From a virus (Duplodnaviria; Heunggongvirae; Uroviricota; Caudoviricetes), in IMG/VR virus record IMGVR_UViG_2531839180_000001: a DNA stretch of 33,339 nucleotides. One strand, given 5' to 3'. Position numbers and translations under genes: made by a program. Below the pieces are notes generated by a model. The model did not search any database. It saw only the letters and a list, made by a program, of their open reading frames with translations, and had not been told where the DNA came from. Shown here piece after piece: positions 9,120 through 23,556 of this stretch (positions are counted from its first letter, which is position 1; every line of letters begins with the position of its first letter).

Positions 9120-10268
9120 ATGACATGGCCATCTGTCACGATTGAGCAGTACAACACATTCAGCAGTTCACCGGACGGCGTGGAAAATACGCTGCTGTTT
9201 GTGGGCAATGCACAAAACAACAAAGGTAAGGTTCTGCCGGTTAATGCCAACAGCGATCTGGATGAACTGCTGGGAACAAACGCCAGCCCGCTGAAGAATT
9301 TCCTTCAGTCCGCACTGACCAATGCCGGACAAAATGCCTTTTTCTATGTTGCCATTCTGCCGGAAGCAGGCAAAGGCAAAGAAGCGACGCCAGCCTGCCA
9401 GGCATGGCAGAACGCCATACTGGCCGCTCAGGAAACTGTTTCAGTGGAAGGCGTGGTGATCACCGAACCGGTCAGCACGAAGGATGACATCAACGCCATA
9501 CAGGCGTTACGTCAGACCATCATCAATAAATATCAGCGCCGCATCTGGTTCATCCTGACCATCGCCGCCAACGACGGCAGTAAAACCTGGGCGGACTACG
9601 TTGCCGAACTGACCACGCTACAGAAAGGTATTGCAGCCCCGCAGATCATGCTGGTTCCGGAGATTTTTGGATTTGAACCGGGCGTTCTCGCCGGCCGTCT
9701 GTGTAACAGCGCCGTCACCATTGCTGACAGTCCGGCGCGTGTGGCAACCGGGGCGCTGTCCGCACTGAAAACCACAGAGCGCCCGAAGGACAGCGCAGGG
9801 CAGGCAATTGATCTCGCCACACTGCAGGCACTGGCAACCGCCCGCTACAGCGTGCCCATGTGGTATGCCGACTATGACGGCCTTTACTGGGCCGATGGTG
9901 TGACACTTGAGGTGGAAGGCGGGGACTACAACGTCATTGAGCATGTCCGCATTGCTGATAAGGTGGCACGCCGCGTGCGACTGATGGCCATCCCCAAAAT
10001 TGCCGATCGCTCACTGAACAGCACGCCGGGCAGCATTGCCGCACACGAAACGCTGTTTGCCCGCCCACTGCGTGCCATGGCGAAATCCACGCAAATTAAC
10101 GGCATCACGTTTCCGGGCGAAGTGAAATCCCCCCAGAAAGGCGACGTGGTTATCACCTGGCAGGACGAAAAGACGGTCAGCATCAGCATTGTCGTCCGCC
10201 CTTACGCCTGCCCCAAAACCATCAAAGTGGGCATTCAGCTGGATAAATCTCTGGAGGAAAACGCATGA
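9120..10268 (+). CDS. contractile tail sheath protein (FI-like)
   Basis: ATG at 9120 preceded by AGGAGA (track ORF starts earlier at 8988); 382 aa, followed by a tube-sized gene with ATGA overlap. Confidence 0.55.
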   Translation: MTWPSVTIEQYNTFSSSPDGVENTLLFVGNAQNNKGKVLPVNANSDLDELLGTNASPLKNFLQSALTNAGQNAFFYVAILPEAGKGKEATPACQAWQNAILAAQETVSVEGVVITEPVSTKDDINAIQALRQTIINKYQRRIWFILTIAANDGSKTWADYVAELTTLQKGIAAPQIMLVPEIFGFEPGVLAGRLCNSAVTIADSPARVATGALSALKTTERPKDSAGQAIDLATLQALATARYSVPMWYADYDGLYWADGVTLEVEGGDYNVIEHVRIADKVARRVRLMAIPKIADRSLNSTPGSIAAHETLFARPLRAMAKSTQINGITFPGEVKSPQKGDVVITWQDEKTVSISIVVRPYACPKTIKVGIQLDKSLEENA

Positions 10269-10720
10269 CGACCCGCATTAACGGCATGGCGTTTGACACC
10301 TTTATCGGTGGAACGGATATCCATGTGAAAAGCATCTCACTGGACATCAGCGATGAAAGCGCCGTTGCCAAAACCCGTGGCATCCCTGACGGTAAACTGC
10401 GTGGACCTGTCAGTGCCGAAGGTGAAATCGAAATGAGTACCCGCAGCTTTAACCAGCTCGGGGAAGTGGCTGCTCAGGCGGGATCGTGGCGCGATCTGCC
10501 GCCAATGGATTTTGTGTTTTACGCCAACACGGGCACTGAAGAAATCCGCGTCGAAGCCTTCGGTTGTGAGCTGATGCTTTCCGGCCTGTTAAGCATTGAC
10601 ACCGAAAGCGCAGATCTGACCACGCACAAAATCAAGTACGTGGTGGCAAGCCCTGACTTTGTGCGTATCAACGGCGTGCCCGTTCTCTCAGAGAACGACG
10701 TGCGCGGACTGATGGGGTGA
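10265..10720 (+). CDS. tail tube protein (FII-like)
   Basis: 151 aa; coupled directly downstream of the sheath gene. Confidence 0.5.
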   Translation: MTTRINGMAFDTFIGGTDIHVKSISLDISDESAVAKTRGIPDGKLRGPVSAEGEIEMSTRSFNQLGEVAAQAGSWRDLPPMDFVFYANTGTEEIRVEAFGCELMLSGLLSIDTESADLTTHKIKYVVASPDFVRINGVPVLSENDVRGLMG

Positions 10721-10723
10721 ACC

Positions 10724-21315: not shown

Positions 21316-21862
21316 CGGGGAAGCCATTCTGCTGCGCAACATCACCGTCAGCGCCACCATGCAACTACCGGACAAAGATATGTCCGGACAGTCAACCAGC
21401 ACCACGAGCGCCCAGCAGGGAAACAAGGCTAAAGAGCTGCGCGTGTCGGGGGTTATTGATTTTAACGATGAAGCTATTCTGACCCGTATTTTTCAGCTTG
21501 CGGAGGCAACAGAAAGCAACGGTGCTAAAAAAACATATCGCATTGCTAACGCTACCGCGAAGGCAATCAATATGCGACAGGGGGTATTTTCTGGTGGCAT
21601 TGATGCCACGGAACAACAGGGAAAAATGCACTGGCAGGTCACCTTTACTCTCAGGGAAAAATTAAGCGTGCCAGAGAAAGCATCCGCACGCAGCGGTTCG
21701 CAGAAAACCATCGCCAGACAGCAGACTCAGAACGGTAGCGAACAGGCACCAGACAAAGGCATGAATACGCAAAGTTCGTTCTGGAAAAAAATCAATGATG
21801 CCGTTGGCTCTGGTCTGGATGCTGTTGGCATCGGGAGCGTGAAAGAGGAAGGGAAAACATGA
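21287..21862 (+). CDS. hypothetical tail-associated protein (occupies the P2 gpU position ahead of the hub gene)
   Basis: 191 aa; overlaps both neighbours; positional inference only. Confidence 0.3.
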   Translation: MTQMIVLALDGEAILLRNITVSATMQLPDKDMSGQSTSTTSAQQGNKAKELRVSGVIDFNDEAILTRIFQLAEATESNGAKKTYRIANATAKAINMRQGVFSGGIDATEQQGKMHWQVTFTLREKLSVPEKASARSGSQKTIARQQTQNGSEQAPDKGMNTQSSFWKKINDAVGSGLDAVGIGSVKEEGKT

Positions 21863-23556
21863 AATTGATACAACGCTGTATGATTAATGGCGAACGGGTG
21901 GAAATTGCCGATATAAACCTTGTTCTTACCCTGAATGCTGCCGGTCGTGGCTTCATTTCTGTTAACAATCTGTCACCCGAACACACACTTGCCGGCGCAA
22001 TGGTACAAATTGATCTCGGCCGTGACGGTGAAGCATGGCGCTATTTCTCCGGCTACATTGAGCGCGATCAACCTGCTGAAAATGGCTCACGTCGCCTTTT
22101 TATCCGTGAAGCAGCTGCTGTGCTGGATTTTGATTTCCCTTGCTCCATGCAACACCCGACGCTGCGGGGGGTACTCGATAATCTGGGGCGACAAAGCGGT
22201 ATCGTTTTTATCACTCCGGATGCGGATTATGCCAGTATACCAACTCCCTACATCACCCACAGCGGCAGCGGAGCACAACTGCTCAGCCAACTGGGGCGAG
22301 CATTCAGTATCAGCGATTACGTCTGGCACCCTATGCCGGACGGTTCTGTATTTGTGGGGAGCGCAGCTGATTCACGGTTTGCCAGTATTACTATGCCGGA
22401 TATTCCGCAACAGTACACACTCGGGCAAAGCGGCGGAAACAGCATCGACATCATGTTTATGGAAACTGTGCGACCGGGCGTGAATCTTCCCGCCGGGCGC
22501 ATTACCCGTGTAGCCCTCAACAACGAGAAAATGACCCTGACATGGGAGCGCCTTACCGCCACGGGTAGCCCTGTTTCCAAATCACCATTACGCAGACAAA
22601 TGGAAACACAGTTCCCGGAACTGGCCAGCGGTATTCTTCATACCCGGCTGGCGCGCGTCATTGCCCCAACGGAATCCGTCACCCTGGGCGATGTAGCCGA
22701 CAGCTTCCGCCCACGCTACGCCGTCGATGTGCAGTTGCTTGATGAGAACGGCAACGATAAAAACGATACACCTGTTTACCCGGCAGTACCCCTCCCCGTC
22801 CCCATGGCTGGCAGTGAGGCGGGATGTTTTGCCTACCCGCCAGCAGGCACCATCGTGGAAATATCCAACATTGAAGGACGACCGGATAAACCTGTCATCA
22901 GGCAAATCTTACCCGCGGGCCATAACCTGCCTGATGTAAAGCCCGGCGAACAGCTGCAGCAACAGCGCGCAGAAGTGTTTCAGCGTGTCACGACTGATGG
23001 AAGCTGGCACAGAGAAACCGATCAGCAAATCAGGGAGCATTCAGCCAGGCGAACCATTAACAGCGATCAGGAAGAACGCACAACAACAACCAGAACAACA
23101 ACAGTACAGGCAAACGACATAACCAGCGTTCTGGGAACCAGCAAGCTGATGACAGGTCAGACAGAACACATTACTACTGGCCATTATGCGATCGCAGCCG
23201 GTGAGCATATCCAGATGGTAGCGCAGGATTTGCTGACTAAACTCAAAGGGGCGACATCCACCATCGAGCATAACCTCACCGAAAACGTGGGAGGCCGCAG
23301 AACATGCCGGGCGGACGGTGGCCTGGAATTTACCGCCCCGACTGTATTTATTGGGCGCGGTGGCTCACGGGAAAAATCCGGACTTAATCTGCTGACGTTG
23401 TTGATTGATATTCTGGATCTGGTTCAGTTGCTGGCCACACACACTGCAAACCACACCCACAGCAACACTGGCACACCAACAAACAGCAGCGAACTTGCCG
23501 CAGACGCCCAACAGGCTACGAGCCTGCGCGAAAAATACGGCGACCTTATCGCCTAA
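21859..23556 (+). CDS. baseplate hub / central spike protein (gpD-like, possibly fused to a gpV-like spike tip)
   Basis: 565 aa, last gene of the late operon; C-terminus carries HTANHTHS (HxH), reminiscent of iron-binding spike apex motifs. Confidence 0.5.
   Translation: MKLIQRCMINGERVEIADINLVLTLNAAGRGFISVNNLSPEHTLAGAMVQIDLGRDGEAWRYFSGYIERDQPAENGSRRLFIREAAAVLDFDFPCSMQHPTLRGVLDNLGRQSGIVFITPDADYASIPTPYITHSGSGAQLLSQLGRAFSISDYVWHPMPDGSVFVGSAADSRFASITMPDIPQQYTLGQSGGNSIDIMFMETVRPGVNLPAGRITRVALNNEKMTLTWERLTATGSPVSKSPLRRQMETQFPELASGILHTRLARVIAPTESVTLGDVADSFRPRYAVDVQLLDENGNDKNDTPVYPAVPLPVPMAGSEAGCFAYPPAGTIVEISNIEGRPDKPVIRQILPAGHNLPDVKPGEQLQQQRAEVFQRVTTDGSWHRETDQQIREHSARRTINSDQEERTTTTRTTTVQANDITSVLGTSKLMTGQTEHITTGHYAIAAGEHIQMVAQDLLTKLKGATSTIEHNLTENVGGRRTCRADGGLEFTAPTVFIGRGGSREKSGLNLLTLLIDILDLVQLLATHTANHTHSNTGTPTNSSELAADAQQATSLREKYGDLIA

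Follow-up and report, generated by a model that had tools for sequence, protein, structure and literature searches.

An Escherichia coli prophage with the late gene order of the HP1 group of Peduoviridae

Introduction

The temperate myoviruses related to bacteriophage P2 split into P2-like and HP1-like genera (Lavigne et al. 2009, PMC2771037), and a 2023 analysis of tail proteins divided all genera of the family Peduoviridae between an HP1 group, which includes Seongnamvirus, Irrigatiovirus, Bielevirus, Longwoodvirus and Hpunavirus, and a P2 subgroup (PMC10612066). The order of the head genes is common to both, whereas the tail proteins are unrelated (PMC2771037; PMC10612066), the tail module of one branch being a much older paralogue that this branch acquired (PMC10612066). 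Here, we explored the affinities of a prophage contained in a 33,339-nucleotide stretch of DNA (IMG/VR record IMGVR_UViG_2531839180_000001; this whole stretch is hereafter the window), in which a first-pass annotation had singled out positions 9120-23556 as a contractile tail module rearranged relative to that of P2, with lysis genes inside the tail operon, and joined to a P2 head. Our analysis indicates, with a probability that we put at about 0.93, that this region is the late structural operon of a temperate myovirus of the HP1 group integrated in the chromosome of Escherichia coli, and that its tail gene order is normal for that group.

Results

Comparison by tblastn of all 23 structural proteins of the prophage with HP1, ESSI-2 and P2 revealed unbroken collinearity with orf15-orf35 of HP1 (24-57% amino acid identity) and with ESSI-2 (24-76%). 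The tail part is collinear, gene for gene, with HP1 orf20-orf35 and, likewise, with K139, phiO18P, ESSI-2 and SI7. The phages HP1, ESSI-2, phiO18P, K139 and SI7 represent five genera and infect Haemophilus, Cronobacter, Aeromonas, Vibrio and Salmonella; their records have in common L, R, S, sheath, tube, lysis genes, chaperone, the small E' open reading frame (ORF), tape measure, a DUF2590 protein, J, I, fibre, Tfa, two small proteins and the hub. Matches to P2 in the same comparison were limited to the six head proteins, S, the holin, the fibre tip and Tfa, and P2 FI, FII, E, U, D, V, W, J, I and X had no matches in the window even at permissive BLAST settings. Thus, the genes stand in the canonical layout of HP1-group phages, which has been known since 1996, and represent no new rearrangement. 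On the evidence of its protein families (DUF2586, HP1_Orf24, TAC_10/DUF6890, DUF2590 and HP1_ORF34), the tail is a separate, deeply diverged module of the HP1 type rather than a set of re-ordered P2 genes. The prophage shares with the HP1 group the head layout, a tail nearer to HP1 than to P2, the gene order (with one gene, a second fibre, in addition) and a fusion of the gpD and gpV homologues. By contrast, Peduovirus (P2 sensu stricto) is set apart by its tail gene order, and no similarity to the P2-type sheath, tube or hub is detectable.

With HP1 (Hpunavirus), the prototype of the group, the prophage shares the order from portal to hub: R and S precede the sheath, the lysis genes separate the tube from the chaperone, and orf33-orf34-hub come after the wedge and fibre genes. 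The tail protein families named above are common to both, as are a hub-spike fusion and, in the chaperone gene, a -1 frameshift signal of the form A_AAA_AAN. HP1 has, however, its own holin, a 187-residue lysozyme and Rz, whereas the window prophage, residing in E. coli, combines a holin of the P2-Y type with an M15 peptidase, no spanin having been found, and carries a second fibre as well as a cargo of hok, com and methyltransferase genes. The nearest deposited phages are ESSI-2 (Seongnamvirus) and SI7 (Irrigatiovirus), with 56-57% identity in the sheath, 61% in J and 76% in the endolysin. Their layout and their holin (P2-Y-type) and endolysin (M15) families are those of the window, but they encode Rz-type spanins after the endolysin, lack an ORF between holin and endolysin and have a single fibre gene; no nucleotide-level similarity links them to the window.

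The likeness to P2 comprises the order and orientation of Q-P/O-N-M-L, the gpR, gpS, gpJ and gpI families, a gpY-type holin (39% identity), Tfa, an Ogr-type activator and frameshifting in the chaperone gene. In P2, however, there are four late operons, the lysis genes follow L and X, V-W-J-I-H-G precede FI-FII-E-T-U-D, and V and D are separate genes; no homologue of P2 gpX (LysM) was found in the window. Phage Mu resembles the prophage in placing sheath, tube, chaperone and tape measure ahead of the baseplate genes, and in carrying at its right end a com gene (60% identity) that overlaps the start of a DNA-modification gene. Unlike in the window, where the hub block comes last, the hub (gp44) and spike (gp45) of Mu are separate and directly follow the tape measure and gp43, before the wedge and fibre genes; its head, the position of its lysis genes and its replication are unrelated, and the partner of com is Mom in Mu but an N6/N4 methyltransferase in the window.

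The conservation of this order was surveyed by scanning one genome per bacterial species with a profile of the sheath and mapping the reference proteins onto the 80 loci returned. Every one of the 78 loci with both tube and chaperone keeps, on one strand, the order sheath-tube-[slot]-chaperone-E'-tape measure-DUF2590-J-I, and in 71 of them the slot, of 0.8-1.6 kb, contains lysis genes. The full string M-L-R-S-sheath-tube-holin-endolysin-spanin-chaperone-E'-tape measure-DUF2590-J-I was recovered in 53 loci.

The survey also returned seven loci from Xenorhabdus (L037, L045, L051, L052, L059, L063 and L088) with an HP1-type tail cluster that consists of gpR, sheath, tube, chaperone, tape measure, DUF2590, J and I, without a lysis slot; upstream, no head genes were detected, and the cluster of L037 comes after host genes and an Ogr/Delta-like gene. 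Judging from this gene content, these clusters look like a headless, tailocin-like derivative of the HP1-type tail.

Every named ORF of the window was translated and scanned against Pfam and PHROGs. All 17 gene calls in 7917-23556 are backed by profiles of one or the other database, and the order is R, S, sheath, tube, holin, endolysin, chaperone with a -1 frameshift extension, tape measure, W-like protein, J, I, fibre, Tfa, second fibre, two small proteins and hub. This is the order given by the first-pass annotation, and it now rests on independent profiles for sheath, tube, chaperone, tape measure, J, I and hub (E from 1e-26 to 1e-230); the profile search, which had been proposed as the test of these calls, reassigned neither sheath and tube nor the baseplate genes in a way that would turn the order into that of P2. 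Two further points of that annotation hold: the annotated P2 record indeed has the lysis genes after L and the baseplate and fibre block before sheath-tube-E-T-U-D, and profiles place a holin and an endolysin between tube and chaperone, i.e., inside the tail operon. The span needs correction at its left end, given that 9120 is the start of the sheath gene and that R and S lie upstream, at 7917-9100.

In order (plus strand throughout), the gpR-like tail terminator or completion protein (7917-8390; P2_Phage_GpR, E = 4.6e-16; phrog_65 'tail terminator', E = 4e-22) and the gpS-like tail completion/Neck1 protein (8387-9100; Phage_tail_S, E = 1.3e-8; phrog_26, E = 2.8e-24) are followed by the HP1-type sheath (9120-10268; DUF2586, E = 7e-129; phrog_907 'tail sheath', E = 7e-149). 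The sheath is 47% identical to HP1 orf23 and 56-57% to its counterparts in ESSI-2-like phages, with no match to P2 FI, and a sequence search of the PDB returned spurious matches to TAL effectors only. The HP1-type tube (10265-10720; Phage_HP1_Orf24, E = 1e-50) is 51% identical to HP1 orf24. Beyond the lysis and chaperone genes lie the tape measure (12017-14113; PhageMin_Tail, E = 7.5e-29; phrog_28, E = 4.5e-91; 38% identical to HP1 orf27) and a DUF2590 protein (14103-14453; E = 4.7e-36), 57% identical to HP1 orf28. The latter has been linked by HHpred to P2 gpW (PMC10612066 Table S1), and the DUF2590 protein of the window is, by analogy through HP1 orf28, a probable gpW/gp25-like sheath initiator of HP1-type tails. 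The wedge proteins J (14443-15630; Baseplate_J, E = 1e-31; 55% identical to HP1 orf29) and I (15627-16262; Tail_P2_I, E = 7e-5; 48% identical to HP1 orf30) follow, and the block that they form (14443-16262) has an additional PHROG match (phrog_1228, E = 6e-82).

Between the fibre genes and the hub are the two small proteins. The orf33-like gene (20566-21315; phrog_1677), whose product is 24% identical to HP1 orf33 and 31% to the ESSI-2 counterpart, is kept at the same position in all HP1-type tails, and a homologue in phage ACA1 has been seen in virions by mass spectrometry (PMC10612066 supplement). An attempt to recognize its fold started from a shallow alignment and gave an AlphaFold2 model with a mean predicted local distance difference test (pLDDT) score of 56, for which Foldseek returned nothing below E = 2.6. 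The orf34-like baseplate complex protein (21287-21862; HP1_ORF34, E = 9.7e-54; 46% identical to HP1 orf34), without matches in a PDB sequence search, is a possible analogue of gpU; orf34 has been tentatively equated with gpU, with the link rated as uncertain (PMC10612066).

The last gene of the operon encodes a protein of 565 amino acids (21859-23556; phrog_2258 'baseplate protein', E = 9e-234) that is 38% identical to HP1 orf35. In HP1, the homologues of gpD and gpV are fused (PMC10612066 Table S1), and several lines of evidence point to the same architecture here. Weak matches to Phage_base_V, the oligonucleotide/oligosaccharide-binding (OB) fold of gpV, at residues 310-347 and to Gp5_trimer_C at residues 393-442 occur in the expected order, and sequence and profile searches of the PDB gave sub-threshold VgrG matches only, with the OB domain at residues 312-345, whereas hhalign of the hub family against P2 gpV and gpD yielded nothing (probability 0.2). 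The decisive comparison is that of folds alone. The AlphaFold model has a mean pLDDT of 67, with blocks mostly above 85 over approximately the first 240 residues and a weak C-terminal half, in which most of residues 353-506 score below 50. Its best Foldseek matches in the PDB are the full-length spikes of AlgoCIS and of the Anabaena contractile injection system, Pvc8, Afp8 and several VgrGs (E from 1e-16 to 1e-12, over 560-650 columns), whereas the alignments with proteins that consist of the hub only extend over some 300-375 columns; these proteins are Mu gp44, the 43-kDa protein of MuSo2 and the baseplate chain of phage P1, with about 330 columns, and also the pyocin R2 hub and T4 gp27. A 194-residue chain of a Mu baseplate entry (9ki1_V), unlabelled in the entry and taken here as the gp45 spike, matches at E = 4.5e-3. 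On the model, the protein is a VgrG-like fusion of a gpD-like N-terminus with a gpV/gp5-like OB fold and beta-helix, so that the spike would be its C-terminal half and is not missing. The proteins of type VI secretion and extracellular contractile injection systems (VgrG, Afp8 and Pvc8) likewise combine a gp27-like hub, a gp5-like OB fold and a beta-helical spike in one polypeptide, but their identity to the window protein, which belongs to a phage baseplate, is only 11-14%. The earlier remark that a separate gpV gene is absent is correct, none having been found in the window, and the fusion of hub and spike in a single polypeptide accounts for it.

The chaperone gene, the gpE analogue (11536-11829; Phage_TAC_10, E = 3e-26; 39% identical to HP1 orf26), ends in GTA AAA AAA TAA, with the heptamer A_AAA_AAA (11820-11826) on the final two sense codons. 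From there, the -1 frame is open for 63 codons (11826-12017; DUF6890, E = 3.5e-24, in addition to the evidence of the sequence and its translation), and its stop codon overlaps the ATG of the tape measure. HP1, phiO18P and K139 also have an A_AAA_AAN heptamer followed by an extension of 60-63 residues, which brings the number of such phages to four. The production of an E' analogue by -1 frameshifting is well supported by these features, in agreement with the E/E' designation that the gene had received at first reading.

The lysis cassette, at 10724-11535 as a whole, comprises a holin of the P2 gpY type (10724-11020; Phage_holin_3_2, E = 5.5e-28; 39% identical to P2 Y), an unannotated 35-codon ORF (MLSRREQKAAAIAWKIIRALWYWLRKPQQPHKEQK; 11026-11133), read from the sequence, whose stop overlaps the ATG of the endolysin, and an endolysin of the M15 peptidase family (11130-11471; Peptidase_M15_4, E = 3e-11, and endolysin PHROGs; 76% identical to the ESSI-2 endolysin). 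The 35-codon ORF encodes a cationic, tryptophan-rich peptide and is found with the same length and position in Escherichia albertii (one amino acid change) and in E. coli E7-1N7 (L007 2894-3001), where its nucleotide sequence is heavily diverged. An Rz-type spanin is present in 57 of the 59 surveyed loci that have both holin and endolysin, the two exceptions being a truncated 3.7-kb contig and the E. albertii representative of the present lineage. The end of the endolysin gene also has a lipobox-like stretch in an overlapping frame, which was set aside as uninformative, that frame being constrained by the endolysin itself. The 64-nt gap after the endolysin contains a hairpin with a 13-bp stem and a T-rich tract (11478-11509, plus strand), found by a terminator scan (predicted free energy -18.6 kcal/mol, z = -6.2), and its stem is kept in E7-1N7 through compensatory changes. 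The hairpin may be an attenuator inside the late operon; in P2, an attenuator is annotated after the lysis genes, a position analogous to that of the window hairpin.

The first tail fibre gene (16259-18115; Phage_tail_fib, E = 3.6e-29, and Phage_fiber_2) is followed by the gene for the fibre assembly chaperone Tfa (18118-18672; Caudo_TAP, E = 1.7e-20), and the fibre tip and Tfa show 88% DNA identity to phiP27. A second fibre or receptor-binding protein (18679-20538; Phage_tail_fib, E = 1.3e-5) shares with the first an N-terminal collar domain (31% identity, E = 2e-18), whereas its C-terminal 470 residues, unrelated to the first fibre, resemble a tail protein of phiSTEC1575-Stx2k (77% identity) and a protein of the jumbo phage ph0011 (58%); this domain has neither a Pfam family nor a PDB sequence match. 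The G+C content drops to 0.44-0.46 across this gene, the sole one absent from the canonical HP1 layout. These features suggest that the second fibre is the one clear recent acquisition, and two receptor-binding proteins with a common collar, the second with a foreign C-terminal domain, may provide for a baseplate of dual specificity.

The head module has the P2-type layout, with the Q-like portal (1653-2687; 54% identical to HP1, 47% to ESSI-2 and 37% to P2) and the P-like large terminase (2680-4467; 53%, 57% and 44%, respectively) on the minus strand, divergent from the scaffold O (4662-5558), capsid N (5573-6586), small terminase M (6604-7314) and head completion protein L (7413-7907; Phage_GPL, E = 3.9e-28) on the plus strand. 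The assignments follow from tblastn matches to HP1, ESSI-2 and P2 and from the names given by the Prokaryotic Genome Annotation Pipeline (PGAP). In these comparisons, portal, terminase and capsid are 47-58% identical to HP1 and ESSI-2 and 29-44% to P2, and identity to P2 over the six head proteins ranges from 25 to 44%. Hence, by sequence, the head is P2-like in organization only, its proteins being nearer to the HP1 group than to P2. Adjoining the portal gene, on the minus strand, is a gene for an Ogr/Delta-like zinc-finger protein, the presumed activator of late transcription (1330-1587; Pfam Ogr_Delta, E = 9.4e-13; also annotated by PGAP in E. coli ECL27977, see below).

The divergent P/O intergenic region contains, within a larger inverted repeat, a 24-bp perfect palindrome, TTCGGATATATGCGCATATCCGAA (4554-4577), that was read directly in the sequence, occurs once in the window and is expected 0 times by chance. 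We regard it as a candidate site for the late activator. Sequences of the P2 type, TGT-N12-ACA, number 6 in the window, against 8.2 expected, with none in any intergenic region, and no second copy of the palindrome was found in the tail region; there is thus no evidence for internal late promoters. At the other end, 39 nt after the stop codon of the hub gene, a hairpin followed by UUUUCAUAU (23595-23618, plus strand; -16.6 kcal/mol, z = -2.4) is a candidate terminator of the late operon, and the annotated terminator T39 of K139 lies at the same place.

In the non-coding DNA of approximately 800 bp to the right of the hub, TTTTTCAGTTT occurs in three exact copies (23760-24045), two of them direct and one inverted. 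With at most one mismatch allowed, this motif has 6 matches, compared with 0.93 expected, and the 3 exact ones are those clustered here; the motif also occurs 36 nt from HP1 cosL and, in the ESSI-2 record, no more than 120 bp from the end. The repeats are candidates for a cos region or terminase-binding sites, a suggestive hint that cos is located right of the hub, as in HP1. A cos site beside attP, instead of beside the portal gene, is characteristic of the HP1 group.

Discussion

From O to the hub, each gene either overlaps its neighbour or lies no more than 27 nt from it, the exception being the 64-nt gap after the endolysin, and the annotation of K139 has promoters at the P/O junction only and a terminator after the last gene. 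The tight packing, the single gap with its hairpin, the terminator, the unique palindrome and the Ogr-like gene together point to a single late operon with an internal attenuator, compared with four operons in P2. In the scheme that we infer from these elements, the Ogr/Delta-like activator would switch on late transcription in both directions from promoters that lie between terminase and scaffold, and one long rightward transcript would run from O-N-M-L to the terminator past the hub. This transcript would carry, in succession, R and S, sheath and tube, the lysis cassette, the putative attenuator, the chaperone with its -1 product made at A_AAA_AAA, and the tape measure; it would then continue through the DUF2590 sheath initiator, J and I, the two receptor-binding proteins that share a collar, the first of them followed by Tfa, and the orf33-like, orf34-like and hub-spike genes. 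The roles of the palindrome and of the attenuator, and a cos site right of the hub, are predicted on the same basis.

Several points count against this assignment. Searches of the window by tblastn with the spanins of HP1, ESSI-2 and P2 found none, so that competence for lysis is unproven. The second fibre has no counterpart in HP1, ESSI-2, K139, phiO18P or SI7. The orf33-like protein is without a Pfam family or a significant PDB sequence match. The candidate late-activator site is unlike the TGT-N12-ACA type of P2, and its identity is a guess. Finally, similarity searches against HP1, ESSI-2, phiO18P and SI7 gave just 11-14-nt matches in the search for cos, and no cos sequence was identified.

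The lack of detectable spanin genes, together with a truncated IS4 transposase in the host DNA nearby and with the existence of headless derivatives, such as the seven Xenorhabdus relatives without head and lysis genes, could be taken to mean that the prophage is decaying and non-inducible, or a tailocin-like remnant, rather than the bearer of a functional phage tail operon. We consider this quite unlikely. All head, neck, tail and lysis ORFs are intact and tightly packed, as is the frameshift signal. Of 5,426 complete E. coli genomes, 38, from different hosts, contain at least 80% of the 14.4-kb region 9120-23556 at 95-100% identity, and the spanin-less cassette itself is kept without gaps in 41 E. 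coli genomes.

A recent recombination, in which a P2-type head was joined to the tail of an unrelated, e.g., Mu-like, myovirus, appears very improbable. Such an origin would fit the order and orientation of the head genes, which are those of P2, the lack of BLAST similarity of the tail to P2, the Mu-like succession of sheath, tube, chaperone and tape measure followed by the baseplate, and the presence of a Mu-like com gene. However, head and tail show like identity to ESSI-2 (41-61%) and to HP1 (28-57%), both being nearer to these phages than to P2, and the G+C content has no break at the L/R junction between them, which implies that head and tail have travelled together. Five phage genera and the majority of the 80 loci have the same pairing of head and tail, and, compared with Mu, the hub and the wedge/fibre blocks are swapped and the protein families are those of HP1. 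Any exchange of modules is ancient and has already been published (PMC10612066). The initial description of a P2 head with a differently ordered contractile tail is therefore apt as far as the organization of the head and the non-P2 order of the tail are concerned, but not for the head proteins, which are nearer to HP1 and ESSI-2. The noteworthy mosaic or rearrangement that it implied does not stand, given the collinearity with five HP1-group phages and the core order kept in 78 of 78 loci: no recent recombination joint is evident, and 'mosaic' is valid only in the ancient, already published sense. That the gene calls should be mistaken and the P2 order hold after all is scarcely conceivable, given that the independent profiles fall in the noted order, with the hub recognized by fold comparison as well, and that nothing was found in favour of such a reassignment.

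The prophage adds a new, uncharacterized member from E. coli to the already known HP1 group of Peduoviridae. No deposited phage matches more than 5% of window positions 1-25000 at the nucleotide level, and this lineage, without a deposited relative at that level, would fill a gap among the E. coli peduoviruses if it were induced and characterized. A cationic peptide of phage phiKT reportedly substitutes for a spanin, and the tryptophan-rich peptide encoded between holin and endolysin could, by analogy, disrupt the outer membrane in the same manner. The E. coli/E. albertii lineage may represent an undescribed genus-level member of the HP1 group in which the loss of the spanin, with the 35-codon ORF in its stead, and the second receptor-binding protein are real departures from the common plan, although, taken jointly, we find this unlikely. 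For genome annotation, the benefit is immediate: genes left unnamed by PGAP in dozens of E. coli genomes, as DUF2586, HP1_Orf24, DUF2590, DUF6890 or 'hypothetical', can now be labelled as sheath, tube, sheath initiator, chaperone frameshift product and hub-spike. The meaning for biology at large is small, the order that looks rearranged relative to P2 being the textbook HP1-type layout.

Beyond the tail operon, beside the junction with the host, is a group of cargo genes, all on the plus strand: a hok/gef toxin (24388-24528; HOK_GEF, E = 3.7e-8), a Mu-like com of 65 codons (24781-24978; Zn_ribbon_Com, E = 9.5e-12; 60% identical to Mu Com) and an N6/N4 DNA methyltransferase (24923-25729; N6_N4_Mtase, E = 2.5e-33), the start of which com overlaps by 56 nt. 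The Mu-like com cassette reported at the far end is thus partly confirmed: com is present and overlaps the next gene, but its partner is the methyltransferase and not Mom. By its sequence, the cassette is a com-controlled methylase rather than com-mom.

The tail region has a 100% identical copy in the chromosome of E. coli ECL27977, which came from a lamb; there, it belongs to a prophage with raiA and bamD at its flank. According to the annotation of that chromosome, genes for Cox, a replication endonuclease and a ParM-like protein lie left of the window, the ParM-like and further partition/stability genes (L004 7077-8355) being located just outside it, between the replication endonuclease and ogr/portal; such a partition cargo is unusual for an integrated phage of the P2 family. 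On the right, from approximately 25.9 kb of the window on, the prophage is followed by the host genes raiA, bamD, rluD and clpB and a ribosomal RNA operon, with raiA (from 25881; PGAP annotation in ECL27977) coming directly after the com/methyltransferase cargo. The truncated ORF of the IS4-family transposase (26414-27193, minus strand; Nterm_IS4, E = 1.8e-33) is in host DNA between raiA and bamD. The stretch of about 821 bp that holds it is missing from ECL27977, so that the window derives from a different, though closely related, genome. Rfam models further identify the small RNA RyfD upstream of clpB (29905-30043) and, at the very end of the window, the start of a 16S ribosomal RNA gene (33040-33339).

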